Virus record (IMG/VR): IMGVR_UViG_3300014208_000091
Span: 1-35,213 of that record
Direction: 5' to 3' (one strand)
DNA length: 35,213 bases
Source of the DNA: a virus
Taxonomy: Duplodnaviria; Caudoviricetes
Positions 2,067-31,663 of the stretch are shown piece by piece. Made by a program: the position numbers and the translations under genes. Position 1 is the first letter of the stretch; the number at the start of each line of letters is the position of its first letter. The notes beneath the pieces were generated by a model that saw nothing but the letters and a program-made list of their open reading frames with translations, was not told the origin of the DNA and ran no database searches.

Positions 2067-5000
2067 ATGACAGCAGCAGAAGATTTAGTAAAAGTAGCAA
2101 GGGAGCATCCCTTGTATGAAAATATCAGAACTACTAAAGGTAAGATAGTTATTGGTAGAGGAGAGAAAGAGTCGCCAGAATATTTATTTATAGGTGAATA
2201 TTTAGATAGAGAAGATAATATTGCTGGCAAGCCATTTTCTGGCAAAAATGGAAAGATTTTAAATGATTGGATAAAAGAATCAGGAATAAAAAGTTACACT
2301 GTCATAAATACGCTACCAATAATTCCTCTTGATTCAGAAAATTCAATAAGATTATTAACCCAAGAGGAAATAGAATATTTTAGACCATATATAAAAGCAT
2401 TAATTAAAGAAATAAAACCAAAAAGAATAATCTGTCTTGGCAAATCAGTAGCAAAATTTATTGAAAAAGAAAAAGAGTTTAAAAATAAGCAATGGTCTGG
2501 TAGAATAGGTTATATATATACTACCAGTTTTTTTATAAAAAATGGCAAAGATGGTATTACTGATTTCGCTGAATTAATAAAGAATGCACCACAACCAAAA
2601 CAGAAAGAAGTAGAAAAAGGATTATTTAAAAATGAAGTTGAATTTAAAAATATGCCATCAGAAGAAGCAGTAAAAAAATTTATCAGCATGATTGGAGGAA
2701 ATTTTATTGATAAAGATAGGTTTACTTATGGTGGTGAGAAATGGTTTGTTGATTATCATCCATTTGCTCATTCAGATGATATTATAATTCATGAAGATGA
2801 TGTTGCAAATTATGATAAATTTTTACTTGTTAAAACAGGTTCAGACAGAGTAAGAATTCCAGGATTTACAGATAGAGCAAAGCTTATATCAACACCTAAA
2901 AGAGATATTTATAGAAATGGAAAATATTATTATATAGTTCATGATACAAATGTAAATAGCTTAGTATCTTTACAAATTCCAGATACAGATAAAATTTTAA
3001 AAACAAATTTTTTAATCAATCAACAGAAGGCAGAAAATCTTGGTCATACTGAAATGATATCAGGAATACTTGCTGGATTACATTCATTTGCAAAGCAATC
3101 AGGAATATTTTTTAAAGACATAAATCAAAAGGATGAATGCATACTTGGTGAAAATAAAGTAAAGATATATACAAGAGATGCAATGTCAGATGAAGATATG
3201 CTTATTTATGATGAATATTATCAAAAGCATCCAGAAATTACATTATATGTTTGCTGTAAAATAAAAGCAGGAAATTATAATTATATAGGATATATTGATA
3301 AGGCAGTTGTAGACCAAACAAGAATTGTTCAAATGATTGGGTCTGATAGTAATTCTGCAAGTAATGATATAAGAAGAATATTTGCTGAACAATATAAAAA
3401 TTTATCAGATTTTATTAAAATATATGAGACAGAAAAAAAAGAAGAAGAAATAATAATACCACAATCATATGTTCCTCTACATGTTCATTGTGAATTCTCT
3501 ATTGGTGATGCATTTGGAACAACAAAATATCTTGCTGAAACTGCATATAAAAAAGGATTTAAAGCTATAACATTAACTGACCATGGTACATTGGCAGGAA
3601 CATGGGAATTCAAAAAAAATTGTCTTGAAAAAAATATTAAACCAATACTTGGGTGTGAAATATATATGAAGAGAGAAGGAGACGACAAGAGATATCATCT
3701 TGGAGTATTAGTTAAAAATGAACAAGGATGGAAAAATTTATTAAAACTTCATAGTATGGCTGTTCGTGATAATTTTTATTATAAACCAATAGTATTACTT
3801 GAAGACTTATTTAAATATAAAGAAGGTCTTATAATATTGTCTGGATGTACAAGCAGTCTTATTCACACTTTAATAAGAAATGATGAAATGAAAGAAGCAG
3901 ATGCTTTAATAAAAAGATTTAAAGACGAGTTTGGTGATGATTTTTATGCTGAAATGCAAGTACATAACATAATAGAAACAAGGAATCAAGAAGTACTTAA
4001 AATATTATTTGATAGAGCAAATCATTTTGGAATAAAATCGGTAATCACAACAGACAGCCATTATCCAAAGGCTGAAGATAAAGAATTTCATGATGCAATA
4101 AAAGCAATTGATACAAAGAAGCCATATGGTACTGCAGGATATGGTGATGACTGCTTTTATTTAATGGAGGATAAAGACATAGAGCAAAGAATACCAGAAA
4201 CTGATTGGAAATTTTTGCATTATAAAGATTTTATGAAAAATACTTTTGAAGTCTCTGACAAATGTAATTTTCAGATTAAAAATTCTGGAGAAAAAGATAC
4301 ATTACCAAAAATAGATTTTGGAAACATATCAAGAGCAGATATGCTTAAGAAGATGGCAATTGAAGGACTTGAAAAAAATACTCCATATAAATATGATGGA
4401 AAAATAAAGGAAAGACTTGACCTTGAACTTAATAGATTTATTGCAAAAGGATATGAAAATTATTTTTTAATGGTTGCTGATATGATAAGATGGGCAAAAA
4501 CAAATGGTATATCAGTAGGTCCTTGCAGAGGAAGTGCTGGTGCAAGTCTTGCTGCATATGCACTAAATATTACAGAAGTTGACCCAATAGAACACGATTT
4601 ATTATTTGATAGATTTATTTCAGAAATAAGAAGAGATGCTCCAGATATTGATGTTGATTACATGGACATAAGAAAAGATGAAATGTACAAATATCTATGT
4701 GAGAAATATGGAAAAGAGCATTGTGCAAAAGTTGCAACATATGCAAGATTTCATCCTAAAGGAATATTAAGAGATGTTGGTAGGATATTTAAAATTCCAT
4801 TAAATGAAACTGAAAAAGTGTGTTCAATGGTATTAGAGAGAAGTGGAGGAGATGCAAGAGCATCATTTGGTTTGACAGATACATTTGCAGAATTTGCAGA
4901 AGCAAAAAATTATGTTGATAGATATCCACAGCCAGCAAAAATTGCAATGGCACTTGAAGGACACATAAGACATAGAGGGATACATGCAGCAGCTGTTGTT

Positions 5001-6251
5001 GCTACTGAAAGAGAAATTTCAAGTTATCTACCAATAACAAAGATTGGAGGAGAAATAGCAACAGAATGGGAAAAACAATTATGTGAAGATATTGGATTAA
5101 TTAAATTTGATATCTTAGGATTACAGACACTTACAATAATTAAAGATTGCATTGATAGTGCAGGAATAAAATTACCTACAAATTTCAATGATGAAGTGGT
5201 ATATAAGAATGTATTTTGGAAAGGCAATACAGTTGGAATATTTCAATTTTCAACTGTTGGTATGACAAAGTTTTCACAATCATTAAATGTTGAAACATTC
5301 AATGATTTGTACGATGCCACAACTTTATTCCGTCCAGGAGCACTACACTGTGTAGATGGACAAACAGCAATTAAAACCGAGAAAGGAGAAATAAAAATAA
5401 AAGATTTATTTTATCAGCAACAGCATAATCAAAAATTGCCAAATATATTTGATGGTAAAGGAAATTTATCAAAAGCAAAGAAGATACACAATAATGGAGA
5501 GCAGGAATGTTTTGAACTTATTATTGATTATGGAACATCTAAGAAAAATGGAAGGAAAATAATATGTACAGATAGACATAGATTTTTTACAAAAGATGGA
5601 TGGAAAATGTTATCTGAATTAAAAGAAGGAGATAAGATATTTACAGTAAAGATTGTAAGAGGATATAAAAAAGGACATGATGCTTGGTCAAAAGGTTTAA
5701 GTGCTGATACTGATTATAGAGTAAAAAGAATTGCAGAAGCAAGTAAAAATAGAATACCACCAAATAAAGGAAAAAAGATGAATTTTACACCAGATACAAG
5801 AAAAATGCTTGGAGATAGGTTAAAAACTGTTGGTATTTTTACAAGATATAAAAAAGGAAGTAAACCACACAATAAAGGAGCAATAGGGTGGGGAGCAAAA
5901 TTGCATGAAAAATATCCAGATAGTCATCCAAACTATATACTAAATAAAAATGGTAGAATATCTTACAAACAAAAAGAAATGTTCAATGAAATTTTAAAAT
6001 ACTTTCCTGATGCAGTATTGAATTTAAGAATAAAAACAAAAAATAGTTTTAGATTTTTAGATGTTGCTGTTCCAAGTAAGATGTATGATTTCGAATATGA
6101 TGGAGAATTTTGGCATAAACCAACAGATAAGAATATTGCAGAAGAGGATAGAAGAAATAAAGAATTAAATGCACTTGGATGGAGATGTTTTCATATTACT
6201 AAAAATAATTGGAATGAATTTATAAGAGGTCTTAAAGATGGATTTTATTGA
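2067..6251 (+). CDS. dnaE: DNA polymerase III alpha (family C), N-terminal part: UDG-like domain, two unknown domains, PHP, catalytic core, split-intein N half with endonuclease
   Basis: PHP motifs LHVH, TDHG, GCE, SGC, TDSHY; GPCRGSAGASLAAYAL; FDRFIS; PDIDVD; GIHAAAV; KFDILGL; LFRPG followed by intein Cys1. Confidence 0.95.
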   Translation: MTAAEDLVKVAREHPLYENIRTTKGKIVIGRGEKESPEYLFIGEYLDREDNIAGKPFSGKNGKILNDWIKESGIKSYTVINTLPIIPLDSENSIRLLTQEEIEYFRPYIKALIKEIKPKRIICLGKSVAKFIEKEKEFKNKQWSGRIGYIYTTSFFIKNGKDGITDFAELIKNAPQPKQKEVEKGLFKNEVEFKNMPSEEAVKKFISMIGGNFIDKDRFTYGGEKWFVDYHPFAHSDDIIIHEDDVANYDKFLLVKTGSDRVRIPGFTDRAKLISTPKRDIYRNGKYYYIVHDTNVNSLVSLQIPDTDKILKTNFLINQQKAENLGHTEMISGILAGLHSFAKQSGIFFKDINQKDECILGENKVKIYTRDAMSDEDMLIYDEYYQKHPEITLYVCCKIKAGNYNYIGYIDKAVVDQTRIVQMIGSDSNSASNDIRRIFAEQYKNLSDFIKIYETEKKEEEIIIPQSYVPLHVHCEFSIGDAFGTTKYLAETAYKKGFKAITLTDHGTLAGTWEFKKNCLEKNIKPILGCEIYMKREGDDKRYHLGVLVKNEQGWKNLLKLHSMAVRDNFYYKPIVLLEDLFKYKEGLIILSGCTSSLIHTLIRNDEMKEADALIKRFKDEFGDDFYAEMQVHNIIETRNQEVLKILFDRANHFGIKSVITTDSHYPKAEDKEFHDAIKAIDTKKPYGTAGYGDDCFYLMEDKDIEQRIPETDWKFLHYKDFMKNTFEVSDKCNFQIKNSGEKDTLPKIDFGNISRADMLKKMAIEGLEKNTPYKYDGKIKERLDLELNRFIAKGYENYFLMVADMIRWAKTNGISVGPCRGSAGASLAAYALNITEVDPIEHDLLFDRFISEIRRDAPDIDVDYMDIRKDEMYKYLCEKYGKEHCAKVATYARFHPKGILRDVGRIFKIPLNETEKVCSMVLERSGGDARASFGLTDTFAEFAEAKNYVDRYPQPAKIAMALEGHIRHRGIHAAAVVATEREISSYLPITKIGGEIATEWEKQLCEDIGLIKFDILGLQTLTIIKDCIDSAGIKLPTNFNDEVVYKNVFWKGNTVGIFQFSTVGMTKFSQSLNVETFNDLYDATTLFRPGALHCVDGQTAIKTEKGEIKIKDLFYQQQHNQKLPNIFDGKGNLSKAKKIHNNGEQECFELIIDYGTSKKNGRKIICTDRHRFFTKDGWKMLSELKEGDKIFTVKIVRGYKKGHDAWSKGLSADTDYRVKRIAEASKNRIPPNKGKKMNFTPDTRKMLGDRLKTVGIFTRYKKGSKPHNKGAIGWGAKLHEKYPDSHPNYILNKNGRISYKQKEMFNEILKYFPDAVLNLRIKTKNSFRFLDVAVPSKMYDFEYDGEFWHKPTDKNIAEEDRRNKELNALGWRCFHITKNNWNEFIRGLKDGFY
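5349..6251 (+). mobile_element. Split intein N-fragment (~100 aa HINT) fused to NUMOD3-like repeats and a Vsr/DUF559-like endonuclease
   Basis: Block A CVDGQTAI, block B CTDRHRF (TxxH), GW...L.EGD; then AWSKG/PPNKG/PHNKG and LDVA...EYDGEFWH...DRRN..L...GW. Confidence 0.9.
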
Positions 6252-6357
6252 AGCAGAAATAAAAAGCATTAAACCGATTGGTAAGAGAAAGACATATGAT
6301 ATTACTATGGCTAATGATGAGCCATCATATATTGCAAATAATATAGTTGTACACAAT
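6238..6357 (+). mobile_element. Split intein C-fragment (40 aa), +1 residue Ser
   Basis: Blocks F/G: TYDITMANDEPSYIANNIVVHN, then S at 6358-6360. Confidence 0.9.
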
Positions 6358-7785
6358 TCAGGACAGTCTCAAATGTATTCAAATAGAAAAAGTGGTAAAG
6401 AAAAAATAGATTATATGCATCCAACTCTTGAACCAATAACAAGAGCAACAAAAGGAATTATTTTATATCAAGAACAAATAATGCAGATTATGAATCAGGT
6501 TGGTGGTATGTCATGGGCAACTGCTGAAATGGCAAGAAAAGCAATTACAAAGTCAAAAGGAAAAGATGCTTTTAATAAAATGAGAGATGAATTTGTAAAG
6601 AATGCAAATAAATTACATGATATGCCAACTGAAGAAGCAGAAAGATTATATGATGTTGTTTCAACTTTTGGTTCATACTCATTCAACAAAAGTCATGCTG
6701 TTGGATATTCACAAATTTCATATTGGTGTGCATATTTAAAAACATATTATCCTAAGCATTTTTATAAAGCATTATTAAAATATGAAAATGATGATACTAC
6801 AAGACAAGATATCATACAAGAAGCAAAAAACAATAATATTGATATTGAGTATCCTGATATAAATAAATCAGATTATTCATATGAATTGTTTGGAGAAAAA
6901 ATTTTTGCAGGATTGAATGTTGTTAGTGGAATTGGTGTAAAGGTTGCTGCAAAAATTATAAAATCAAGACCATATGTAAGTGTTGCTGATTTTAAAAAAA
7001 GATGCAAAGTATCAGAAAAATTATTTCAAGGATTAGTTGTTGCTGATGCATTTAGAGAATTTAAAATAAATAAGCAAGCAGAATATATGAATAAACCAGA
7101 AATAAAAGAAGATTTTGACAATGTTACATGGGCAAAACTTATTTTTGAGCATACAACACTTAAACCAAAGATAGATATTTTTCATACTTTTGATTTTGGT
7201 GATTATCCATTCCTTGATATTAAAACACTTGATGATAAAGTTGGAGGAACACATCAATTTTTAAGAGGAATAATTACAGGAACAATAAATAAAGATAAGC
7301 TTATAAGACCAGAAGTTGCAAAACATATACATAAATTTCAGAGACACATGATATATTTGAATTTAAATGATGGTACAGGTAATATTGCTTGTCAAGTTAA
7401 TCCTGCAACTTATGAATTATATCAAAAAGAAATTCAGTTTGTAGAGAATCAGCCAGTTATTGTTTTTGGAACACTTAGCAAAGATGGCAGGAAAATGTAT
7501 GCTGACATGATTCAAATTATTGATGGAGCTCATAAAACAGATGGAATAGATAAAGTTTTTAAAGGCATTGGTGCATTAACTACAAGAGAAGTATATATAG
7601 TGTCTGCTCAACCAGCAGTAAGTAAAAAAGGAAAAAGCTATTATAGACTTGTTTTTCATAATAAAGTTGAAGGATTGTTATTTAAACTTACAAGGAAAAT
7701 ATATCCTGGAATGAAAGTTACATTTTCAATAACACAGCCACCATTTATTGAAAGACTTACAATAATAGAGGATAATAGAGAATGA
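6238..7785 (+). CDS. dnaE: DNA polymerase III alpha C-terminal part, preceded by a 40-aa split-intein C half
   Basis: TYDITM...YIANNIVVHN|S; then GIILYQEQIMQ, YSFNKSHAVGY, YLKTYYP, PDINKS, HhH (VSGIG), OB fold (LNDGTG); own GAGGT RBS at 6226-6230. Confidence 0.93.
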   Translation: MDFIEAEIKSIKPIGKRKTYDITMANDEPSYIANNIVVHNSGQSQMYSNRKSGKEKIDYMHPTLEPITRATKGIILYQEQIMQIMNQVGGMSWATAEMARKAITKSKGKDAFNKMRDEFVKNANKLHDMPTEEAERLYDVVSTFGSYSFNKSHAVGYSQISYWCAYLKTYYPKHFYKALLKYENDDTTRQDIIQEAKNNNIDIEYPDINKSDYSYELFGEKIFAGLNVVSGIGVKVAAKIIKSRPYVSVADFKKRCKVSEKLFQGLVVADAFREFKINKQAEYMNKPEIKEDFDNVTWAKLIFEHTTLKPKIDIFHTFDFGDYPFLDIKTLDDKVGGTHQFLRGIITGTINKDKLIRPEVAKHIHKFQRHMIYLNLNDGTGNIACQVNPATYELYQKEIQFVENQPVIVFGTLSKDGRKMYADMIQIIDGAHKTDGIDKVFKGIGALTTREVYIVSAQPAVSKKGKSYYRLVFHNKVEGLLFKLTRKIYPGMKVTFSITQPPFIERLTIIEDNRE

Positions 7786-8435
7786 AATTTTTGATAAAGC
7801 ACAGTGAGTCTGATTCAGAATTTATTGAAGAATTTGAATCAGAAGAAGCAGCATATGAAGCATATCAAGACATTGATGTTACGATTGAGAGGAAAAAAAT
7901 GGAAATGACAAAAGAACAAAAAAGAGAAAAAGTAATAGCATTGCTGCTTTCTACGAATAGAGAAGGAATGCAAGAATTGATAAATTGGATGAATGAAAAA
8001 GGATTTTTTACATCACCAGCAGCCATGTCACATCATTCAAATTATGATGGTGGATTAGTTGACCATAGCATTAACATATATAATACATATGTAAAACTTT
8101 GCAATGAATATAAACTTGAAGTTCCAAGAGAGACTAAAATAATTGCAGCATTTTGTCATGACTTGTGCAAGGTAGGATTATATATTGGAGAGAATGGAAG
8201 ATATGTATATAATAATTCTGTCGGTTCACAAGGACATGGAGTATTGTCATTAGTTATAACAAGAAGATTTTTGAAACTTACAGAACTTGAAGAAAAAATG
8301 ATTCAGTTTCACATGGGCATGTACACAAAAGATTCAAGTAGAAAAGACCTTGAAGATGCTTTTAATGATATAAAAGTAAAATTGTTTTATTTTGCAGATG
8401 AGATTGCATGTCACTTGATGGAAAAAATAAATTAG
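7782..8435 (+). CDS. HD-domain phosphohydrolase (YhaM-like)
   Basis: SPAA..HH...GGLVDHS, HDLCK, GHG, FHMG, FAD. Confidence 0.85.
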   Translation: MKFLIKHSESDSEFIEEFESEEAAYEAYQDIDVTIERKKMEMTKEQKREKVIALLLSTNREGMQELINWMNEKGFFTSPAAMSHHSNYDGGLVDHSINIYNTYVKLCNEYKLEVPRETKIIAAFCHDLCKVGLYIGENGRYVYNNSVGSQGHGVLSLVITRRFLKLTELEEKMIQFHMGMYTKDSSRKDLEDAFNDIKVKLFYFADEIACHLMEKIN

Positions 8436-8447
8436 GAGGAAAATAAA

Positions 8448-8858
8448 ATGAAATGGATAATACCAACAATATTGATTTTAGCTGTATTAATGACAGCATG
8501 TAGTAGTAAGGAACCAGCAGTTGTTCAGACAGTTGAACAGACTTCAACTGATAAATTATTATTGCCAGAAGATGCAAGTACAATGGTGAATTGTATGAAT
8601 GAAAAAGGAATGGTAATGTATGGAACAGAATGGTGTCCACACTGTCAAAGACAAAAAGCAATGTTTGGTGAAGCAATTGCAGAATTAGCATATGTTGACT
8701 GTGATAAAAATGCAGAATTATGTACTGCTGCTGGTGTAAAAGGTTATCCAACTTGGGTACTTGATGGACAATTATATGAAGGAGAACAAACTTGGAAACA
8801 AATAAAAGACTTAACAGGATGCACAGAACAACCACCAATAGGAAACGAAACACAATGA
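8448..8858 (+). CDS. Thioredoxin-fold lipoprotein (WCPHC)
   Basis: Signal peptide ending LMTAC; MYGTEWCPHC..QK..FG; C-x6-C; GYPTW cis-Pro loop, the pattern of VKOR-associated Trx domains. Confidence 0.85.
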   Translation: MKWIIPTILILAVLMTACSSKEPAVVQTVEQTSTDKLLLPEDASTMVNCMNEKGMVMYGTEWCPHCQRQKAMFGEAIAELAYVDCDKNAELCTAAGVKGYPTWVLDGQLYEGEQTWKQIKDLTGCTEQPPIGNETQ

Positions 8859-9592
8859 TTAAATGTTTATGTGGCTGTGGAAATGAATTATTAGAATCTT
8901 CTTTAAAAAGAGGATTCAAATATATTCAAGGACACAATTCAAAGATAAACAATCCATTTTTGGGTAAACATCACACAGAAGAAACAAAAATAAAATATAA
9001 GGAAAGCATGAAATATTATAGAAATGGTAATCCTCTTTGGAAACAAAAATGTATTAACATAGTGCCAAGGATAGTATCACAGACAGAAAAAATAAACAAA
9101 AGCAATAAAATGAAACAACTTATAGCTGAAGGAAAATTTTTTACAATAGAGCATAGAGAAAAACTGTCAAAGGCAACTAAAGAAACTATGAAAAGTGTAG
9201 AGAATAGACGAATTGGTGAAAAGAATGGTATGTATGGAGTAAAATGTCCTAATTCAAAAAGAGTATTATATAATGGTATTAGTTTCAGAAGTACTTGGGA
9301 AGCAGAAATTGCAAAAGTATTTGATAAAGAAAAAATAGTTTGGCAATATGAATCAAAGAGATTTTATTATAAAAATTTTACTTATCTTCCTGATTTTTAT
9401 TTGCCAGATTATGATTTATATATTGAAGTAAAAGGATGGATTGGTAGAAATCCAGAGGACATCATTAAAATAAATACATTCAAAAAAGAAAATAGCTTAC
9501 TGTTAATAGATGGTATATTTTATAAAAAGATAGTATTGTCTCAGAATATATTACAATATATTTTAGAAGAAGGTGTCAAATGTTCGATTTAA
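8855..9592 (+). CDS. Free-standing putative homing endonuclease (CxCGC + NUMOD3-like + PD-(D/E)xK)
   Basis: KCLCGCG, GKHHTEETK, GEKNGMYG, FRSTWE, WQYE, YLPDFYL, IEVKG. Confidence 0.8.
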   Translation: MIKCLCGCGNELLESSLKRGFKYIQGHNSKINNPFLGKHHTEETKIKYKESMKYYRNGNPLWKQKCINIVPRIVSQTEKINKSNKMKQLIAEGKFFTIEHREKLSKATKETMKSVENRRIGEKNGMYGVKCPNSKRVLYNGISFRSTWEAEIAKVFDKEKIVWQYESKRFYYKNFTYLPDFYLPDYDLYIEVKGWIGRNPEDIIKINTFKKENSLLLIDGIFYKKIVLSQNILQYILEEGVKCSI

Positions 9593-10593
9593 TTAAATAT
9601 TGGAATCATCAAGTAGCATTTCCAGAGAGAGTTACAGTAAAGAATAAAGAACAAATGTTTTCTCTCTTGAATAAAGTAAATAAGATAAAGAACAAAATTT
9701 ATTTTAGTTTATATGATTGTGATGATAATGGAAAATTTTCAAAACCTCATATAGACAAAATTGCACTTGATTTAGATTCATTTAAATCATTCGAAAATAT
9801 AAAAGCTTCACATTACAAATTAATGAAGATGAACAGAAAACATCTTATGATATTTAGTACAGGTGGCTTTTGGCTCTATGAATTTACAAAGAATTATGAT
9901 AATTTAAAATATCCAAACTCAGCATTGTTAAATGCAATTGAATCAGTATTAAAAGAATTGAATTTGACAATGGGAAACGAAAAGGTTTGTGATACTGACC
10001 ATCACTGTGTTGATATTGCAAGAGTTGCAAGATTTCCAAATTCATTTGATAAAAAAAGAGGAATATATTGCATACCAATAACAGAAGAAGACCTTGAAAA
10101 AGGTTTCGATTGGATAAAAGAGAAAGCTAAAAAGCCATGTTATGAATTTATATATTATGGTGAAGAGCTTATTGATATGATACCATTTGATTCAGAGAGA
10201 AAGAAAGTATATAATGTAGAAATGCCAGAGTGGGATGTTGATGACTCTACATTTAAAAATATTTCAGATAACATAATTAGTGATTTCCCACCATGTATGA
10301 AAAGAATATTACTTGAAGACAACATTGATACTTATGACAATAGATATTTATTTGCACTTTATTGTCATGAGATTGGCTTACCTGCAGCGATTTGTAACAA
10401 GATAGCAAAAAAGTATTTTAGTAGAACAGAGAGAACAGATGGATTAGGAACAAATTATGACCATTTTGTAAAATTCAAAGTGCTTGAATATGCATATGGT
10501 AGAGATGATTTTTTTCCAACATGTGATTCTCTGTTTAGGAAAGGGTTGTGCAAAGGAAAGTGCCCAAAGTACAACAAAGCTGTATATAAATGA
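9580..10593 (+). CDS. Archaeo-eukaryotic primase, fused PriS-PriL type with Fe-S domain
   Basis: LDLD motif I, FSTGGFW (motif II variant), D..RVARFPNS; C-term FPPCM...NRY...PTC...GLC.GKC with four Cys. Confidence 0.8.
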   Translation: MFDLIKYWNHQVAFPERVTVKNKEQMFSLLNKVNKIKNKIYFSLYDCDDNGKFSKPHIDKIALDLDSFKSFENIKASHYKLMKMNRKHLMIFSTGGFWLYEFTKNYDNLKYPNSALLNAIESVLKELNLTMGNEKVCDTDHHCVDIARVARFPNSFDKKRGIYCIPITEEDLEKGFDWIKEKAKKPCYEFIYYGEELIDMIPFDSERKKVYNVEMPEWDVDDSTFKNISDNIISDFPPCMKRILLEDNIDTYDNRYLFALYCHEIGLPAAICNKIAKKYFSRTERTDGLGTNYDHFVKFKVLEYAYGRDDFFPTCDSLFRKGLCKGKCPKYNKAVYK

Positions 10594-10694
10594 TTTGAGG
10601 TGCAATAAAATGAAAAAAAATTTTGAATTTGTAGACATAGAAGATTTTGAAAAGAAAAATTGTGGAAATATAAAATTAACGGGAGATGATGAAA

Positions 10695-13600
10695 ATGAAT
10701 AAAGCAATATTATTTGTATTTGGTGTTTTCTTATTTTGTGGAGTAGCAACAGCAGCAACATATGATTGTTGGCAAGAGAATGCTAAGCAATCAACAAGTT
10801 GTGGTGGATTAAATACAGGAAATTATTCTTGGACAGGAACAACTTGGTCAAACATAACAAGAGCATTTGATAACAATTGGCTAACATCAACAAAATATAG
10901 TGTATTTGCTAATGGAGATTTTTATCCTACTTTTGCAAAACCATTAAATGCAGCAAATACAAGCAAATTAAAAATAAGTGCTGGTACATATCTGAGAGAT
11001 GTAAGTATACCTCAACAATGCTTTGTACAGCCACAATTAAAATTTAGGATTAGCATAAATAAAGATGGATGTCCAACCTGTACAAATAGAAACTTAAAAA
11101 CTTATTGCTGGGATGGAACATCATGGTATAAAATGTCATTTGGTAACTCTGGTGCAAATATATTAACTAACATAGGAATGGCATGGAAAATAAATATTGT
11201 TCCTGGAACAGTACAAAATACAACAAATGTTACTTGCCAAAATTGTGTAGCTCCTCCTGCATCAACATCAATACTTTATGGTAAGGTTACAAGAGATGGA
11301 ATTAGTGTCGCAAATCTTACAGTAAAAGTAAGTTGTAATGGATTTAATAAAACAGCAAAAACATCAGCAAATGGAGATTATTCTTTGGCATATTCTGCTA
11401 TACAGTGTACAGTTTATGATAACTATACAGTATCTACAACTGATGGTACTTATTTAGTAACTTCATCTGCATTAGTTGAAAGTGCTTCTGGATGTGGAGT
11501 AAATATTGGTAAATTAGATTTGAATTTACCAATTTGTTCAGTTGGTACAAAGAAGTGTGGAATAGAAACTGTTAATCAGATAATGCAGTGTACCAATGGA
11601 TATTCTTGGAACACAACACTGTGTGAATATGGATGTAGCGATACTCCAGGAACAGTGCCAAAGTGTAATGTATGTGAACAGAACTCATTAAGTTGTAGAA
11701 ATGGTAATACGATAGATTTCTGTACAGGTAGTAATTGGATACAAAATACAACTTGTGAATATGGATGCAAATTAGATGAAAATACTTGTAAAGTATGTGA
11801 AGCAGGAGCAAAGACTTGTGCAGTTAGTTCAAGTGAATTGTCTATTTGTAAAGCAGATGGCTCTGGTTTTGATGTAACTAATTGCCAATATGGATGTGAT
11901 TCAGAAACAAATTCTTGTAGACAACCAATCTGTATAGTAAATGAAACAAAGTGTCTTGATGAAGAAAATATTAGTATTTGTACAGATGGATTTACTTGGG
12001 AGCCAAAAGAAACTTGTGATTATAGTTGTAGTATTGGCAGTAAAGTATGTAAGGAATGTTCTACTGGAGATACACAGTGTAAATTTAATACAGAGCAGAC
12101 AGACTGTATAAATTATGTATGTAAAGGTACAGATGGTTTAAGTTTTGAACAGACATGTGGTGACGATGGCATGTGGGAAACAGAATTAACTTCTTGTTCA
12201 ACAGGATGTGGACCATTCAACTCTTGCTCTGTGTGTGAACCATACTCAAGAACTTGCAATGGAAATGTTTTAGAAACTTGTAATAATATGGGATATGATT
12301 CTACAAGCAAGAAGTGTGAGTTTGGATGTGATGCAGAAACAACTTGGTGTAATATTTGTGCTCCTGGAACAAATGCATGTTTCGGAAATGAAGTAAAAAC
12401 TTGTCTTACAAATGGTAGAGGATGGGACGATGCAACTGTAGAGACTTGTGAAAATGGATGCCATGCAGGAAAATGTACAACTGAAGATAAATGTAATCCA
12501 TCATATGATGATGTTTTACTTGTAACAAATATAAATAGTGAAATAAGTAAAAACATAAGTGATTACTTTATAGAAAAGAGAGGAATTACTCATCAAGTAT
12601 TTATTAATGTAACAGCAAGTGAATCAATAAGTTATGCAAATTATAACAAAAGTATAAGACAAGTAATAGAAAAATATCTTGTAGATAATAATTTGCAAAA
12701 TGAAATAAATTATATAGTAACAACAAAAGGTGTACCATTAAAAACTACTTGGACAGCAGGAATGACAAATGGATATAAGTCTATTGATAATATGCTTGTT
12801 AGTATACTAACAAATTCAACAGATTCAGGAAGTTATGTATCAAATCCTGTATATAATAAAGCAATTACAGACGATAACATAAAACAGACATATAACATAT
12901 ATTTAGTGACAAGACTTGACGGAAGAAATATTGATGACATAAAAAAACTAATACCAGAAAAAACTTGTAACGAATTATCTGGAAAAGTATTACTTGATAG
13001 AAATCCATCAAAGACAGGAGGATATCTTACTTGGGATAAAAAAATTGAAGTAGCAAATAATGTTTTGATAGCAAGAGGATATGCAACACTATTTGATAAT
13101 ACATCTGGTTTTGTAGTAAATAAAACAAATTTAGATGGTTATTATTCTTGGGGAAGTAATGATAAGGGTAGCTGTGATGCAATTTCAAATAGTAGTGCAT
13201 GGGGATTTACTTTTAATCCAGGAAGTATTGGTGACACTGGTGTATCGACATCAGGAAGAACTTTCGATGGATATTGGTCAAGAGCATGGAATGGAACTGC
13301 TTGGGTAAATTGTTCACAAAGCTTGACTGCTGATTTAATAAGCATGGGAATATCAGGAACAAAAGGATATGTTGCTGAACCATATACAACAGCATTATCA
13401 GAACCAGATATTACATATGATAGATATACCAATGGATACAATATTGCACAAGCATTATATATGTCAAGCCAAGTAATAAATTGGATGGATGTATATATTG
13501 GTGATCCAAAAGTAAATATTCAAGCAAATACAGTATCTGAGTGTACAATAAATCAAGCAACTTGTATAAATGAAAACCAATATGGAACTTGTGGTACTGA

Positions 13601-14285
13601 TGGAAAGTGGAAAGTAATAGAGTGCGAATATGGATGTTATTCAGGATTCTGTAGACACTGTCCAGCAGAATGGGAATTGCCATTCGACAGTCCACAATTA
13701 GCAATAAATCCAGTAGAATTTGAGCCATATTCATTTTATAGGAAGGTAGAGTGTAATGGTGCTGATACATATAAAAATTGTTTTCAAGGACAATGGAAAA
13801 CAACAAGCTGTGCATTTGGTTTCTGTAATCCAGAAGACAATACTTGCAGAGGTAGACCAAATTATACTTGTGGATATGGAAGTCTTTCTGGACTGCCAGA
13901 ATGTAGTGGAGTTTCAGTAGTTTATTCAGTTGTTGGAAACATAGCAAATGTTACAAACATATTTGATGGAAATAGAAATACATCTGCGATACCATTAACT
14001 TTCCCGTCATATTTGTATATTAATGTAACATTGCCAGCAAATGCAACTTACTGGCACTTTAATGTATACTCTGCAACAGAAAGTTTGGGATGGTCTTCAG
14101 CAGAGCAGATAAGAACAGCAAATGGAGTTGCCAAATATAGAGTTGTATTTAACAACAATGCAAAAACATATCAAGCATGGAATGGTACTGCTTGGAAAGA
14201 CTTTGGCTACTTATCTGGAGCACCAGCAACAATTGCAAAGGGTAACTACTTGTATGATTTATCCTTTGAATTTGAAGTGCAATAA
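10695..14285 (+). CDS. Large secreted Cys-rich repeat protein with a TIGR03790-like domain
   Basis: Signal peptide; about ten C..G...C......C..G.W....C.YGC repeats; VLLVTN.NS..S..I.DYF..KR, KGVPL, LVTRLDG, WGSND, STSGRT, GYVAEPY, IGDP. Confidence 0.8.
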   Translation: MNKAILFVFGVFLFCGVATAATYDCWQENAKQSTSCGGLNTGNYSWTGTTWSNITRAFDNNWLTSTKYSVFANGDFYPTFAKPLNAANTSKLKISAGTYLRDVSIPQQCFVQPQLKFRISINKDGCPTCTNRNLKTYCWDGTSWYKMSFGNSGANILTNIGMAWKINIVPGTVQNTTNVTCQNCVAPPASTSILYGKVTRDGISVANLTVKVSCNGFNKTAKTSANGDYSLAYSAIQCTVYDNYTVSTTDGTYLVTSSALVESASGCGVNIGKLDLNLPICSVGTKKCGIETVNQIMQCTNGYSWNTTLCEYGCSDTPGTVPKCNVCEQNSLSCRNGNTIDFCTGSNWIQNTTCEYGCKLDENTCKVCEAGAKTCAVSSSELSICKADGSGFDVTNCQYGCDSETNSCRQPICIVNETKCLDEENISICTDGFTWEPKETCDYSCSIGSKVCKECSTGDTQCKFNTEQTDCINYVCKGTDGLSFEQTCGDDGMWETELTSCSTGCGPFNSCSVCEPYSRTCNGNVLETCNNMGYDSTSKKCEFGCDAETTWCNICAPGTNACFGNEVKTCLTNGRGWDDATVETCENGCHAGKCTTEDKCNPSYDDVLLVTNINSEISKNISDYFIEKRGITHQVFINVTASESISYANYNKSIRQVIEKYLVDNNLQNEINYIVTTKGVPLKTTWTAGMTNGYKSIDNMLVSILTNSTDSGSYVSNPVYNKAITDDNIKQTYNIYLVTRLDGRNIDDIKKLIPEKTCNELSGKVLLDRNPSKTGGYLTWDKKIEVANNVLIARGYATLFDNTSGFVVNKTNLDGYYSWGSNDKGSCDAISNSSAWGFTFNPGSIGDTGVSTSGRTFDGYWSRAWNGTAWVNCSQSLTADLISMGISGTKGYVAEPYTTALSEPDITYDRYTNGYNIAQALYMSSQVINWMDVYIGDPKVNIQANTVSECTINQATCINENQYGTCGTDGKWKVIECEYGCYSGFCRHCPAEWELPFDSPQLAINPVEFEPYSFYRKVECNGADTYKNCFQGQWKTTSCAFGFCNPEDNTCRGRPNYTCGYGSLSGLPECSGVSVVYSVVGNIANVTNIFDGNRNTSAIPLTFPSYLYINVTLPANATYWHFNVYSATESLGWSSAEQIRTANGVAKYRVVFNNNAKTYQAWNGTAWKDFGYLSGAPATIAKGNYLYDLSFEFEVQ

Positions 14286-16100: not shown

Positions 16101-16595
16101 ATGATATTTGTAGGAATTGATGGTGGACTTAATGGAGCAATTGTTGCTATTAATGAGACAGGGAATATTCTTGTAAGAAAAACTATGCCGATTGTTAAGG
16201 GAAAAGGAAGGTCTGAATATGATATTCCGGAAATCATAAAAATATTTAAAGAACTAAAAGCAACTAATGTCGAGCTGATTGCTGGTTTAGAGAAAGCACA
16301 AGTGTCTCCAATCATTAGTAAGAATTCAGCTTTTAGTATGGGGTATTGCAATGGTATGTTCCAAGGTATATTATCTGCTCTTAATATTTCGTACATGGTT
16401 TTTAGAGCAATTGATTGGCAGAAAGATATTTTGCAAGGAATAAATGGAACAGATACAAAACAAAGGTCAATAATGTGGTGCAAGAGAAGGTATCCTGAGC
16501 AAGACTGGAGAGCAACATCAAGAAGTATAAATGACCACGATGGTTTATGTGATGCTACAGGAATAGCTAATTATGTACAGAGGAAAACAAAATGA
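16101..16595 (+). CDS. RuvC-like Holliday junction resolvase
   Basis: IFVGIDGGLNGAI, LEK, SAFSMG...G, WQK, K..S, HDGLCDA. Confidence 0.8.
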   Translation: MIFVGIDGGLNGAIVAINETGNILVRKTMPIVKGKGRSEYDIPEIIKIFKELKATNVELIAGLEKAQVSPIISKNSAFSMGYCNGMFQGILSALNISYMVFRAIDWQKDILQGINGTDTKQRSIMWCKRRYPEQDWRATSRSINDHDGLCDATGIANYVQRKTK

Positions 16596-18696: not shown

Positions 18697-19830
18697 ATGG
18701 CATTAAAAAATTTAAGAGATTGGCAAAAGTCAGCAAAGATTGTTTTCAAACAGCATAATTACAGAGGAATAGTGAAAGCAGCAACAGGTACTGGTAAAAC
18801 TATTTTTGCAATAGACTTCATTGATGACTTTAAAGCAGATATAATGTTTTCAAGTGAAGAAAGTTTTCTTATAACTGTACATACGGAAAATTTATTAAAT
18901 CAGTGGTCAAGCAAAATTGAAAGCATTACTGGATTTCCAGTTGGGAAAATTGGAGCAGGACACAATCATGAAGAGAAAATTACTGTTGCAATTATTAATT
19001 CTGTTAGAGAGAGAAAGATGAATTATAATAATTTAATAATGGATGAATGTCATCATTATTTGTCAGACATAAATTCTGGATTACTTGAATTAAATAAATT
19101 TCAAAGAATTCTTGGATTGTCAGCAACACCAGAGAGAAGTGATTTAAGAGATTTTTCAAAATATGGTCTTGAAATTATTTTTGAATATACAGTTGATGAG
19201 GCAATTGAAAATAAAGATTTATGTGATTATGAAATTATAAAAGTTGGTGTTGAACTAAATGGTAAGGAAAGAGAATTATATGATAGACAGGAGGAATTAT
19301 TTAAAAAATATTTTCCAGAATTTAGAACTAGCATGAAAGATATATATAATCCTCCATGGTCACTTGAAAAAATGCATTTAAGAAATGCAATAAGAAAAAG
19401 AGTTGCGATTACTTCAAGGTCTCAAGAAAAGATAAAAGAGATTGTTAATTTAATAAAGAAAAATCCAACAAAAAAGGTGATGGTATTTGCACAATATATT
19501 TATACTATGCAGGCAATTTTTCATGCACTTTATGCAGATGGAATTACAAGTGTTAAGTATAATGAAAAAAAGGAAAGGCAGATGGCACTTGATGCATATA
19601 AGAATGATAGAACAAATGTATTAATTAGTGCAAGAGCACTTGATGAAGGACTTGATATTCCTGCAACTGATATGATTATAATATTATCTGGATTTAAAGG
19701 AGAGAGACAATCAAAACAACGTGTTGGTAGAGGTCTTAGAAAAAAAGAGCAGAAAGCAATGGTTTATTTATTGTTTTGTTATAATACAGTTGATGAAAAG
19801 TGGTTAAAGGATGTCTTGAAATATATATAA
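18697..19830 (+). CDS. Superfamily 2 DNA helicase (XPB/Rad25/UvsW-like)
   Basis: LRDWQ, ATGTGKT, DECHH, GLSATP, LDEGLDIP, QRVGRGLR. Confidence 0.92.
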   Translation: MALKNLRDWQKSAKIVFKQHNYRGIVKAATGTGKTIFAIDFIDDFKADIMFSSEESFLITVHTENLLNQWSSKIESITGFPVGKIGAGHNHEEKITVAIINSVRERKMNYNNLIMDECHHYLSDINSGLLELNKFQRILGLSATPERSDLRDFSKYGLEIIFEYTVDEAIENKDLCDYEIIKVGVELNGKERELYDRQEELFKKYFPEFRTSMKDIYNPPWSLEKMHLRNAIRKRVAITSRSQEKIKEIVNLIKKNPTKKVMVFAQYIYTMQAIFHALYADGITSVKYNEKKERQMALDAYKNDRTNVLISARALDEGLDIPATDMIIILSGFKGERQSKQRVGRGLRKKEQKAMVYLLFCYNTVDEKWLKDVLKYI

Positions 19831-20100: not shown

Positions 20101-21240
20101 TTGTCACCTGAAACACAATCGGAGACACAAATGATAGACAGGCAAAAAATCTTTGATGAGGTCAAAGACATTCTTTCTAAAAAAGACTCTGCCATATTGA
20201 AGTTTCAAGAAGGTAGTATCAGCCAAAAAATTTATGATAAACTTGAAAAGTTTGACTTTGGTGAGGCAATTGAAATATCTGGTTCTGATGACCAACTTTA
20301 TGGTCAATTAAAAAGGATACAAGCAAAAATCAGACTTGCAGTAAAGGTTCCAGTAGTACAATCTTCTTATACTGTTTCTGAACAGACTACTGATGAGACA
20401 GCAAAGTTAGTTCCTGAAGAAATGCAATCATATGTTCCAAAAACAGATGGATATGTAAGCAGAGCAATTCATGGTACAACTGATGTAAAATTGATGCAAG
20501 GACTTTATGCAAATAAAGATTTTGCACTTCTAATTGGTGATACAGGCTGTGGAAAAACACACTTAGCAAGAAATCTTGCATATCAAAACAAGCAACCATA
20601 TATGAGAGTGAATATGAATGGTGCAACTACACCAGAAGACCTTGCTGGTCAATGGATACCAAATCCAAATCCAAACAGTGATGCTAAATATATATGGCAA
20701 GATGGTGTATTGACAAGATTCATGAGAAATGGTGGTGTTTTTGTTGTTGATGAAATTAATATGGCTCCAGCAGATATCAATTCAATGTTTCATTCAGTTA
20801 CTGATGATGAAAGAAGACTTGTTCTTACTCAAAAAGACGGTGAAGTAATTATTGCTCATCCAAATTTTTGGTTAGTAGCAACAATGAATCCTGATTATGA
20901 GGGAACAAAACCACTTAATCTTGCTTTGAAAGATAGATTCAGAGTAATTTATCTTGGTTACAGCGATAAAGTTGAAAAGAGATTAAACATTGATGATGGA
21001 ATGCTTGATGTTGCATCAAAGTTGAGAAAATCTGAAGAGATATCAACACCAGTTAGCACACGTGATTTAATAAAGTATCGTGATGACCAGACAAAATATG
21101 GTGAAGATGTTGCAAGAGCATTTTTTGTAAACAACTTTGAAAAGGAGCAAGAACAACCAGTAGTAAAGGAATTGCTTGAATTGGTTCTTGATGGCAGACA
21201 AAAAGGAAAACAAAATAGCAATGGAACTTATGGCAATTGA
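20101..21240 (+). CDS. MoxR/CbbQ-family AAA+ ATPase
   Basis: GDTGCGKT, EDLAG, WQDGVL, VVDEIN, ATMNP, ALKDRF, STR; TTG start with GGTG RBS. Confidence 0.9.
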   Translation: MSPETQSETQMIDRQKIFDEVKDILSKKDSAILKFQEGSISQKIYDKLEKFDFGEAIEISGSDDQLYGQLKRIQAKIRLAVKVPVVQSSYTVSEQTTDETAKLVPEEMQSYVPKTDGYVSRAIHGTTDVKLMQGLYANKDFALLIGDTGCGKTHLARNLAYQNKQPYMRVNMNGATTPEDLAGQWIPNPNPNSDAKYIWQDGVLTRFMRNGGVFVVDEINMAPADINSMFHSVTDDERRLVLTQKDGEVIIAHPNFWLVATMNPDYEGTKPLNLALKDRFRVIYLGYSDKVEKRLNIDDGMLDVASKLRKSEEISTPVSTRDLIKYRDDQTKYGEDVARAFFVNNFEKEQEQPVVKELLELVLDGRQKGKQNSNGTYGN

Positions 21241-21249
21241 GGTATTCAG

Positions 21250-23085
21250 ATGAGTCTTACAAACAATACAAATAGTTGGACACGAGGAAAAATTGGTGGC
21301 AAGATTGATTATTCAAGTGAAATTGAATTTTTATTCAAGCTTGATAATACAATTCAAACAGCAAAATCAATACAAGTTCAAGATGGAAGTGTTGGCCACT
21401 ATATTGCTTGTACAGACATGAAAAGAATAATCTTAAATTTTGAACAGATGAGAAATCTTTCTGGTAATAGTTACTTTGACTTTTTAATTTATGTCAAAGG
21501 ATTTAATTATCATGAGATGAGTCATGTAATGTTTACAAGATATGGTGCATATTCAGCACCAAGAGAAGCAAGAGAGTCATTGAATGTTCTTGAAGACCAA
21601 AGAATTGAATGTGTTTTTAGTAAAAAATATCCAAAGAGCAAGAGCTACTTTAGACTATTGTCGCTTGGTTATGTATTAAAAGATGGAATGGAGCCAAATC
21701 ATTATATTTTACTTTATGGACGAAGATTTATAATCGGAAAGCAAGATATTATGGAAGATTTGAGAGACTTATGCGTTGAAAAATATGGTGAAAATATTAT
21801 CAAACAAGCAGAAGCAATCATTGATGAATATATTGAGACAACAGATGTCGATAAACAAATTGCTCTTGGAATAAAATTTTATCACTTGTTTGGTCAAAAA
21901 GTTCAAAGTCCATATCAAAGACCATTTTTACAGACCAAAGGAAAATCTTCAACATCAAATGAAGAAAAAGAACTGACCGAACAAATATCAGAAGATATAA
22001 AGAAAGGATTAGAAAAAATTGAAGAAGAACAAAAAGAAATAGAACAAAAGAATAATCAAAAAACTACTGAATCAGATGAAAGAATTGGTGAGCAATCAAA
22101 TGAAGGAAAAGAAAAGGATGGAATGTCATCAGCAGTTTCACAAAAGACAAGTAAAGATAATGATGATTTGCAATCAGGTAGTGGTTCACAGTCAAATGAA
22201 CAATCTGAATTACAAAGTGCTATTAATAAACTTTTAAAGAAGACAATGCAGGAAGTTCAAGACGAAGTTGAAAGACAAATGAGTTCAATGGGAAAACAAA
22301 CTTTTGAAGGTAGTCAGTCTACATCTGTAAATGATTCAATATTAGTTTTTACTCCTGAATCAAGACACTTTTCAACAATGAGAAAATTAAAAGAGCAAAT
22401 AAAGAAAATGAGAAATGACCTTGATAACAGGACTGTTTATCACCAGAAGAGAGGAAAAATTGACATGCGAAGAGCAATGATAAATAGCAATAGTTATAAA
22501 ATTGCAGATTTTAAAAAGTTTTCACCAAGTAAATTATCTAATACAAGACTTGCTGTTACTGTTTTACTTGATTCAAGTGGTAGCATGAGTAATTCTGATT
22601 TTGATACTGCTGTTGGTTCTGGTTGGGCAATAGCAAATGCTCTTGAAGAGTGTGGTAGTAAGGTAAAAGTTATTGAATTTTCAGATAATTATAGAATACT
22701 TAAAGATTTTGATGAAGACTCAAAGAAAAGCAAATGGGGAAGAAATTATAATAGTGGAACATTTGTAATTTCTGCATTAAAAGATGCTGCAAAATCATTA
22801 GATGAAGTAAGCAAGAGAGATAACATAAAGAATCAAATGATAATGATAATTACTGATGGTGGATTTATGTCAAGAGACACAACAGAAAAAATTACAAAAG
22901 AATTAAAAGATAAGGGAGTTTATGTTACACTATTTAGAGTTGGTAGTAGTACTGATTATGCATCAAGGGACGCATATAATAAAATAGTAACAGTAAGAAA
23001 CTTTACACAACTAACAAAAGGAATGACTGAAATGGTCCAGCATATACAACTTGAAACTGTAAGAAAGGTAAAGATGAATACCTAA
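21250..23085 (+). CDS. vWA-domain partner protein (CobT-like) with an N-terminal HExxH metallopeptidase-like domain
   Basis: HEMSH, NVLEDQRIE, low-complexity linker, GKID, MIDAS DSSGS...GT...ITDG. Confidence 0.88.
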   Translation: MSLTNNTNSWTRGKIGGKIDYSSEIEFLFKLDNTIQTAKSIQVQDGSVGHYIACTDMKRIILNFEQMRNLSGNSYFDFLIYVKGFNYHEMSHVMFTRYGAYSAPREARESLNVLEDQRIECVFSKKYPKSKSYFRLLSLGYVLKDGMEPNHYILLYGRRFIIGKQDIMEDLRDLCVEKYGENIIKQAEAIIDEYIETTDVDKQIALGIKFYHLFGQKVQSPYQRPFLQTKGKSSTSNEEKELTEQISEDIKKGLEKIEEEQKEIEQKNNQKTTESDERIGEQSNEGKEKDGMSSAVSQKTSKDNDDLQSGSGSQSNEQSELQSAINKLLKKTMQEVQDEVERQMSSMGKQTFEGSQSTSVNDSILVFTPESRHFSTMRKLKEQIKKMRNDLDNRTVYHQKRGKIDMRRAMINSNSYKIADFKKFSPSKLSNTRLAVTVLLDSSGSMSNSDFDTAVGSGWAIANALEECGSKVKVIEFSDNYRILKDFDEDSKKSKWGRNYNSGTFVISALKDAAKSLDEVSKRDNIKNQMIMIITDGGFMSRDTTEKITKELKDKGVYVTLFRVGSSTDYASRDAYNKIVTVRNFTQLTKGMTEMVQHIQLETVRKVKMNT

Positions 23086-23978: not shown

Positions 23979-24230
23979 ATGGAAGAAGATAAACTAACTG
24001 TAAACTATGATGTAGTAAGTGAGTTTGCAGGACACAAATCAAACACTGGTGTTGGTCTTGGTGAAGCAGTAAAAGACATCTTTAAACTTGTCAAAGAAAA
24101 GTCAATGCAAGTTGCAGTAAAAGGTGTATTTGTTTCATTCGAAACAGTTGACCAATTGAAAGCAAAGCTAAGAGAAGCAGCAATTGAAGGACTTAGCATA
24201 AGAATACACGATGAAAATATTGGAGGATAA
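23979..24230 (+). CDS. Candidate ubiquitin-like (beta-grasp) protein ending in Gly-Gly
   Basis: 83 aa, ends ENIGG*; strand-strand-helix-strand pattern with ThiS-like VAVKGVFV; ThiF/E1 gene 460 nt downstream. Confidence 0.6.
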   Translation: MEEDKLTVNYDVVSEFAGHKSNTGVGLGEAVKDIFKLVKEKSMQVAVKGVFVSFETVDQLKAKLREAAIEGLSIRIHDENIGG

Positions 24231-24232
24231 AA

Positions 24233-24565
24233 ATGAGCAAATACCATAAACACGAAGGAGTAAATGATTATCATTTGATAACACAAAACCATAAAGACCC
24301 AAAGACTAAAAAGGCACACGATGCAGTAATTAAAGGAGCAAATAAACCAGCAGAAAAATTAAAGAAATTATTTAGTAGTAAATCAACAAAGCCAACAGCA
24401 CGAAAAGAGTCTGTAAGACCTGAAGTAAAGCCAGTAGCAAAAATGGTTTCGGCAACACATGAGATTGATTTGACAAAGCATCCTGAAATTGAAAAACTTG
24501 TTGTAAAGTTTGAAGACAAGAATGGTAAGGAAGCAACACTGTCAATACCAAATTACTCAAAATAA
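24233..24565 (+). CDS. Lys-rich hypothetical protein
   Basis: GGAGG RBS; followed by a T tract. Confidence 0.6.
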   Translation: MSKYHKHEGVNDYHLITQNHKDPKTKKAHDAVIKGANKPAEKLKKLFSSKSTKPTARKESVRPEVKPVAKMVSATHEIDLTKHPEIEKLVVKFEDKNGKEATLSIPNYSK

Positions 24566-24579
24566 TTTTTTATTTTTTT
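24566..24579 (+). terminator. Oligo-T tract
   Basis: T-rich run between the stop codon and the tRNA. Confidence 0.45.
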
Positions 24580-24580
24580 A

Positions 24581-24651
24581 GGGAATATGGTGTAGTGGCA
24601 ACATGACTGCCTCCAGAGCAGTTGCTCTCGGTTCGATTCCGAGTATTCCCA
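24581..24651 (+). tRNA. trnW: tRNA-Trp (CCA), intronless, 3'-CCA not encoded
   Basis: Acceptor GGGAATA/TATTCCC, D stem GTGT/ACAT, anticodon arm ACTGC-CTCCAGA-GCAGT, T arm CTCGG-TTCGATT-CCGAG, discriminator A. Confidence 0.93.
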
Positions 24652-24691
24652 TAAAGTTTTGCTGATTTAATAAAATCAGAGGAGAAATAAA

Positions 24692-25330: not shown

Positions 25331-25339
25331 GGTATCAAA

Positions 25340-28736: not shown

Positions 28737-28745
28737 GTGAATAAA

Positions 28746-31662: not shown

Positions 31663-31663
31663 A

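Follow-up and report, generated by a model that had tools for sequence, protein, structure and literature searches.

DnaE, the family C replicase, is by the usual rule an enzyme of bacteria and of bacteriophages. The replisomes of bacteria and archaea are not related to each other, and it is a standing question how a replicase of one kind could take the place of the other. A 2016 survey, in the part of its text at hand, describes C-family polymerases as exclusive to bacteriophages among viruses, and notes that phages mix archaeo-eukaryotic primases (AEPs) with bacterial-type parts (PMC4889955). The accessible portions of two other papers report a Pol III in DPANN chromosomes, those of Pacearchaeota, where it is adjacent to PolD (PMC8204110), and list DnaE (K02337) for predicted DPANN viruses with no discussion of a primase partner in that portion (PMC12647753). 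As far as their available portions go, nothing on such a pairing is added by PMC7544198, PMC12926913 or the main text of bioRxiv 10.1101/2025.02.15.638363. We found no description of a module made of DnaE and a PriS-PriL primase in the literature searched; a 2023 compendium of methanogen viruses, which lies outside this search, may mention the polymerase of Methanobacterium virus PhiF1, a cultured virus treated below. Such a module is carried by the stretch analysed here, the full linear virus record IMGVR_UViG_3300014208_000091 (35,213 bases, hereafter the window; its completeness is estimated at 49%, so that a genome of about 70 kb is expected). In our conclusion, DnaE and a single-chain primase make up a hybrid replication module which is real and conserved in tailed viruses. 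The window is quite likely to represent about half of the genome of a tailed archaeal virus, probably of Nanobdellota, which has a split-intein DnaE and this primase as its replication module.

The DnaE of the window is encoded by two open reading frames (ORFs) of 1394 and 515 aa which overlap by 14 nt (the coordinates of all features are collected in Table 1). Over these two ORFs, Pfam finds domains in the order usual for DnaE, starting with PHP and Pol III alpha NTPase, continuing with fingers (on both ORFs) and ending with HhH and OB, and the score against TIGR00594 is 507 bits for a cut-off of 434. The first ORF contains HVHCEFS (aa 472), TDHG (504), GCEIY (529), HLG (544), SGC (592) and TDSHY (662), followed by the palm motifs PDIDVD (aa 859) and KFDILGL (aa 1013), while FNKSH lies in the second ORF. 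Among 40 aligned sequences there is no, or almost no, variation in the nine PHP ligands or in the palm aspartates. The N-intein begins at Cys1095 of the first ORF and continues into a Vsr-like nuclease; the C-intein, on its separate ORF, ends with His-Asn and is followed by Ser, as expected of a split intein. The split is genuine, and we have here a new natural split intein. Splicing the two ORFs in silico gives a chain of 1569 aa, the value also given by a preliminary description of this DNA, which had called the DnaE complete. Every motif named there is present, with the nine PHP ligands and the catalytic aspartates, but the enzyme becomes complete solely after trans-splicing, and the uracil-DNA glycosylase (UDG) and nuclease-fold domains standing in front had gone unmentioned. 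The UDG domain has GEYLDRE and YTTS where the relative P0002 has GEAPG and YHPS; because its motifs are degenerate in this way, it is likely to be inactive. The following stretch of about 280 aa has no Pfam match, and its predicted fold (pLDDT 93) is that of two restriction-endonuclease-type domains, for which the nearest structure appears to be archaeal Hjc, with a middling Z of 8.5 (root-mean-square deviation, rmsd, 2.8; 101 residues aligned); the pair has no match in the ESM Atlas.

Among the best 120 of 4902 DnaE matches, 76 rows, the window included, form a block in which the relatives are 38-63% identical to the window, bacterial DnaE being 34-37% identical. The phylogeny that the preliminary description had called for separates this viral clade from bacterial DnaE: in a FastTree of 319 rows, from which 11 duplicate or odd rows had been dropped, 74 labelled clade rows and two unlabelled ones lie on one side of a branch supported at 98, and two trees built on selections of 59 and 36 rows set the main subclade apart from bacterial DnaE with a support of 98-99. 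The clade comprises at least about 70-75 proteins. This is a lower bound, and pattern scans of alignments returned mostly unrelated DnaE. A pattern based on RSGGDAR yielded 20 loci, 4 of them clade members and the other 16 belonging to other viral DnaE groups devoid of the primase; two further patterns yielded 11 and 6 loci with no additional clade member, and single-protein scans of viral contigs gave no match. UDG is carried by 26 of the first 75 clade rows (among the same best 120 matches), the second nuclease-fold domain by 66 of 75 clade proteins and the first by 35.

The preliminary description had placed a fused PriS-PriL primase two kb from DnaE. It is there, in a single chain which combines an AEP and a PriL-CTD-like domain and starts 1795 nt past the DnaE end, and the arrangement is conserved: all seven other main-subclade loci having DNA past the DnaE end (L001, L081, L161, L162, L204, L206 and L207, of which L204 and L206 are near-copies) possess, no more than about 2.5 kb downstream, a primase homolog scoring 175-356 bits. 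The locus L083 stops within DnaE and is therefore outside this count. Among 220 loci in all, none with another DnaE had a primase homolog; the one extra match, L220, is a contig lacking DnaE. On this 3-kb contig (G002:C110), a second viral-type primase homolog of the Woesearchaeota metagenome-assembled genome (MAG) G002 lies beside an SNF2-like helicase. The usual neighbours in clade loci are ThyX, a Cas4-like nuclease, ERCC4/XPF and an SNF2 helicase, with an AAA_24 ATPase and an unannotated gene of ~360 aa, a single-stranded DNA-binding protein (SSB) by position only, upstream. A DUF3987-like helicase candidate is found upstream in the relatives G004 and G008, with no homolog in PhiF1, G412, G413 or the window. 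G004 carries terminase, head morphogenesis and HK97 capsid genes, and PhiF1 terminase and portal genes; in the window no virion gene was detected by Pfam (39 proteins) or PHROGs (29 proteins). As a separate observation, the whole window contains a single GATC (13503), outside its replication module, and 12 of the 12 GATC sites of G004 lie inside its replication module (47721-57213).

The primase ORF codes for 337 aa, modelled with a pLDDT of 88.6. In this model, aa 1-186 would correspond to Pyrococcus PriS (1v33; Z 12.9, rmsd 2.9, 171 residues aligned) and aa 217-337 to the eukaryotic PriL Fe-S domain (6di2; Z 5.8, rmsd 3.8, 106 residues aligned), a match with which photolyase helical domains tie (Z 6.2). 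The Pfam PriL family (PF04104) is weak in the window (E 0.007) and passes the cut-off in the relative G011 (6e-6). The catalytic residues D64 and D66 are invariant and D145 nearly so. The family is a large one: at E<=1e-30 it takes in 332 clusters among 1.84 billion. Cellular primases of Nanobdellota match it weakly (18-29 bits over part of the profile, in 26 of 200 genomes besides the centre genome), which places it outside the cellular DPANN cluster-2 clade of fused primases; both PriS and PriL domains are present in the 4 of 4 fused Nanobdellota primases which were scanned. Judged from its sequence, the window primase is a separate viral family having the architecture of the host fused primases, and not a recent capture from a host.

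The sequence is present in two runs from two studies, both groundwater metagenomes, and no RNA dataset carrying it was found in the sample listing. The depth along overlapping contigs is 6-8, a single contig covers 6273-9745, and the split of DnaE is internal to contigs from both studies with 0-1 differences. The genes are nearly all on the + strand, GC is uniform along the window (25-34%), and so is tetranucleotide use together with GC (r 0.95). A chimeric assembly of the window, or a sequencing error behind the split of DnaE, could be argued for from the gap of 100 nt (9745-9848) that remains in the primase gene between the longest pieces listed, and from run X1, which may itself be the source sample. 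Since the split is found in contigs of two studies and the pairing is seen again in independent genomes, we give this next to no credence; the coverage check suggested in the preliminary description, taken with the even composition, shows no chimera.

The preliminary description did not recognise the module from characterised systems. However, PhiF1 (MK994522), whose recorded host is Methanothermobacter thermautotrophicus, possesses it. This virus, listed as unclassified in the available part of PMC9796341, is the sole match of the primase among 50,697 phage records (28%, E 2e-25). Its annotation gives, in order, UDG-DnaE (ORF58, 57), PD-(D/E)XK, the primase homolog and ERCC4. The homolog, ORF55, scores 188 bits against the family profile and is labelled 'hypothetical' in GenBank, so that the lack of recognition holds for the primase partner but not for the DnaE, which was already annotated. 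[quoted passage not shown] As PhiF1 has the module, DnaE and this primase are paired in a virus whose recorded host is archaeal, and the hybrid module has a cultured precedent, itself apparently unanalysed. A chimeric replisome in a virus of archaea, as had been proposed, is partly supported, the hybrid module being real and conserved and an archaeal host likely; it was overstated in view of this precedent and of the DnaE listed for predicted DPANN viruses and for some DPANN chromosomes. We also observed that the PhiF1 dnaE (L231:13539-18333) consists of two overlapping ORFs split after PHP, which may reflect a frameshift, an error or a true split, and contains an unannotated intein.

Phages commonly have AEP primases alongside parts of bacterial type, hence the host cannot be read from the pairing by itself. 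We infer with strong confidence that the host is an archaeon, and lean, much less firmly, towards Nanobdellota, because of two promoter sites of the PhiF1 type (B recognition element and TATA box, BRE-TATA), the use of ribosome-binding sites (RBSs), and relatives binned with Woesearchaeota and Nanoarchaeota. A matrix trained solely on 16 PhiF1 sites finds 2 sites in the window for 0.1 expected; each lies between genes, on the coding strand, and 9 of 200 resamples held one site as good as the weaker of them. Among the controls, 3 of 19 loci have one marginal site, and a fourth, L024, with two sites, proved to be a sister-group member. GGTGA stands ahead of 8 of the 36 window ORFs, in agreement with the preliminary description, and the RBS ratio is 3.0 in the window and 2.6 in PhiF1, compared with 0.06-1.0 in 17 bacterial and phage loci. 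The archaeal-type tRNA announced there is a tRNA-Trp(CCA), which would be of that type by general identity rules. Two clade members only are found among 37 GTDB loci, in a Nanoarchaeota and a Woesearchaeota MAG, each adjoining a primase homolog. The XPF/ERCC4 nucleases of the relatives have archaeal Hef/Xpf as their best NCBIfam matches. The best DNA match in Nanobdellota genomes is the dCMP deaminase gene, at 74%, a figure uninformative as it stands. Another archaeal virus with DnaE is likely to be G413 (L279-L286), together with its relative L024: this complete 145-kb virus has a UDG-DnaE sister to the clade, a Prim-Pol/helicase fusion, 13 PhiF1-type promoters for 2 expected, and NrdD, thymidylate synthase and protease genes in common with PhiF1.

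Could the window instead come from a bacteriophage, for example of bacteria of the candidate phyla radiation (CPR), which would pair DnaE with an AEP-PriL primase and show archaeal signals by chance or as relics? The mixing of AEPs with bacterial parts in phages, mentioned above, would suit such a phage, as would the promoter and RBS signals missing from several relatives, the subclade of L216 with its DnaG and gp32, and the thioredoxin type of the window, which occurs in 20 of 201 CPR genomes. This type is however found in 114 of 201 Nanobdellota genomes (top scores 105 vs 91 bits, these two groups being compared), the sole cultured virus with this primase, PhiF1, infects an archaeon, the two clade members in GTDB come from MAGs of archaea, the window promoters match those of PhiF1, and the relatives' XPF/ERCC4 point to archaea. 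We therefore consider a phage quite improbable.

Several results nevertheless weigh against an archaeal virus with a conserved module of this kind. A generic BRE-TATA regular expression is not significant in the window (3 vs 2.3 and 2 vs 0.7 expected), so that the promoters reported in the preliminary description stand with the PhiF1 matrix but not with the generic pattern. PhiF1-type promoters are absent from the relatives G004, G008, G009, G002:C2, L161 and L083, and the RBS skew is absent in G004, G008, G011 and G002:C2. The contigs in the MAGs have a viral look, and co-binning may have put them there. The matching of CRISPR spacers and tRNAs proposed earlier gave nothing convincing: in 401 Nanobdellota genomes, for each of which only 2 candidates were scored, there was no striking match to a tRNA or of spacer type. 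The neighbouring subclade L216, L082 (P0064 group) has a DnaG-type primase and a gp32-like SSB, which gives it a phage-like look, and the sister virus G413 uses Prim-Pol instead of a primase of the window type. Neither the core-only tree nor a mixture model assigns a place to the PhiF1 DnaE. Finally, the His of the canonical AEP motif II, kept in other members, is replaced by Trp in the window primase and in most of its close relatives; the nearby His88 is conserved.

An intact PHP site of this kind would proofread, and intact PHP and palm domains are typical of a replicative DnaE. In the mechanism that we propose, the two halves of DnaE would be translated from their overlapping ORFs and joined by protein trans-splicing into the 1569-aa chain; the primase, whose C-terminal cysteines would hold a 4Fe-4S cluster as in PriL, would lay the primers, and the spliced DnaE would copy the genome and proofread it with its intact PHP site. 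Unwinding may be due to a DUF3987/SF6-like viral helicase (in G004 and G008; not in the window fragment or PhiF1) or to the host MCM. The search for replisome partners recommended in the preliminary description, PCNA versus beta-clamp and MCM versus DnaB, gave no PCNA_N, beta-clamp, MCM or DnaB_C in any of 5 records for each, with controls detected and three or four of each five records being fragments. As no viral clamp was found, processivity might be ensured by the added domains (the C-terminal domain, the nuclease-fold pair) or by the host PCNA through a non-canonical motif. The beta-clamp motif, searched with a regular expression, is absent from the window and present in 3 of 74 clade proteins, yet the same expression matched only 3 of 41 bacterial controls; the PIP-box is found in 0 of 74 clade proteins. 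The missing clamp, MCM and DnaB, in complete PhiF1 too, and the missing PIP-box would also fit an archaeal virus whose DnaE is mainly a recombination or repair polymerase, not fed by the primase, with the host replisome copying the bulk of the genome; so would a neighbourhood rich in repair genes, with UDG, nuclease-fold domains, XPF and Cas4-like neighbours. But the clamp-motif test is a weak one, the intact PHP and palm are typical of a replicative enzyme, and genes for primase, thymidylate synthase, an SSB-like protein and helicase stay linked to it across a large divergence, which makes a repair role unlikely in our opinion. The reading that we favour is a replicative DnaE primed by its neighbour. 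With barely better than even confidence, we further propose a widespread and so far undescribed lineage of archaeal tailed viruses, with methanogen and DPANN hosts, using a self-proofreading family C polymerase which would be primed by an Fe-S PriS-PriL primase and would work clamp-free or with archaeal PCNA.

A DnaE match exists in 8 of 401 Nanobdellota genomes; except in the centre genome, it belongs to other DnaE lineages. Five of the eight form one clade, next to or fused with PolD genes in three, and this chromosomal DnaE groups with bacterial DnaE (support 100), not with the viral clade. The derivation of the viral DnaE from a host chromosomal DnaE is rejected by these trees. Since it is with bacterial DnaE that the cellular clade groups, a viral route is the most likely origin of the viral enzyme, to judge by sequence relationships. 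The five genomes (L268:7078-13530 of G330, L269 of G372, L270 of G386, L271 and L272) have intact catalytic motifs. In G330, DnaE is fused to PolD DP2 in one ORF of 2151 aa, in G386 it adjoins Cdc6-DP1-DP2, and in G372 it lies between MCM and DP2. We suspected the DP2 beside the cellular DnaE of being inactive, and rejected this idea, its DxDGD motif being intact.

Table 1. Positions of the features discussed, in window coordinates
Feature	Position	Strand	Remarks
DnaE N-part	2067..6251	+	UDG domain of family 4 (motifs degenerate), two PD-(D/E)XK folds in tandem, then PHP, polymerase core and N-intein
UDG family-4-like domain	2127..2552	+	motifs GEYLDRE, YTTS
Two tandem restriction-endonuclease-fold domains	2607..3461	+	nearest archaeal Hjc
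PHP (nine metal ligands) and palm (PDIDVD, KFDILGL)	3468..5348	+	
N-intein, 300 aa, first residue Cys	5349..6248	+	ends in in-frame Vsr/DUF559-like nuclease
DnaE C-part	6238..7785	+	40-aa C-intein, fingers, HhH, OB, clade-specific ~60-aa C-terminal domain
C-intein, 40 aa	6238-6357	+	last residues His-Asn, then Ser
HD-domain phosphohydrolase	7782..8435	+	Pfam, PHROGs
Thioredoxin-like protein	8448..8858	+	type common in Nanobdellota
NUMOD3 and PD-(D/E)XK endonuclease	8792..9592	+	probably free-standing homing endonuclease
Single-chain primase	9580..10593	+	AEP (D64, D66, D145, R148, R151) and PriL-CTD-like domain (Cys239, 315, 324, 328)
PhiF1-type BRE-TATA site, 18.3 bits	20052..20068	+	intergenic, upstream of AAA/vWA genes
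PhiF1-type BRE-TATA site, 15.9 bits	23829..23845	+	upstream of small-ORF/tRNA cluster
tRNA-Trp(CCA)	24581..24651	+	G1-C72, A73, CCA not encoded

Behind the strongest BRE-TATA site lies a pair of genes for a CobS-like AAA ATPase and a vWA (CobT-like) protein (20101-23085); such pairs are known from tailed viruses, according to the accessible part of PMC8651126. The region 23979-27409 contains an 83-aa ORF with a Gly-Gly end (ubiquitin-like by this end only), a ThiF/E1-like gene and a 689-aa ORF of no assigned family. The relative G004 likewise has ThiF and a JAB protease, and these genes, beside those of the window, suggest a viral ubiquitin-like system. A Cys-rich protein of 1199 aa (10686-14285), with a signal peptide and no Pfam or PHROG match, is possibly an adhesin or surface protein. 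The window also encodes a methyltransferase-DUF1599 fusion (425-1267), a RuvC-like resolvase (16101-16595), an XPB-like superfamily 2 helicase (18697-19830), an SPFH protein (28737-30173) and a dCMP deaminase (31646-32230).

DnaE is thus paired with an archaeal-type primase throughout a viral clade and in one archaeal virus in culture, against the phage-only statement of the 2016 survey (PMC4889955). If our reading is true, such viruses would run a working cross-domain replisome. The module permits a direct test of whether DnaE uses PriL-type primers and works with PCNA or clamp-free, and supplies a gene by which DPANN viruses can be searched for.

Compared with the DnaE of bacteria and phages (PF07733, PF02811, TIGR00594), that of the window has intact PHP, palm, fingers, HhH and OB domains and catalytic residues; it is however at most 37% identical to them, forms a separate clade with extra N- and C-terminal domains, and is partnered with a PriS-PriL-type primase rather than with DnaG. 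In the Pacearchaeota Pol III (PMC8204110, accessible portion), a family C polymerase is likewise found in an archaeal setting, but this one is cellular and groups with bacterial DnaE rather than with the viral clade. The primase resembles the fused PriS-PriL of DPANN cluster 2 (PMC7414124) and PolpTN2 of Thermococcus plasmids (PMC5862659), as described in the available parts of these papers, in combining an AEP and a PriL-like C-terminal domain in one chain; it differs by being shorter (337 vs about 420-680 aa), by belonging to its own large family, and by having no noted PriCT-1 or winged-helix (WH) parts. The split of DnaE recalls the fractured genes of PMC2677866 (portion at hand), with a split intein in DnaE, a Vsr-like nuclease between the halves and a short overlap of the C-intein ORF (14 nt in the window, 6-69 reported); here, though, the nuclease is in frame with the N-intein, whereas those reported are free-standing. 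The closest system remains PhiF1, which shares UDG-DnaE followed by a homologous single-chain primase, the C-terminal domain of DnaE and the style of the BRE-TATA promoters. It differs by a DnaE only 27-36% identical to that of the window, devoid of the nuclease-fold pair, split in the linker between PHP and core (ORF58/57) and bearing a contiguous intein at another site, by a GC of 46% against 30%, and by its thermophilic methanogen host.

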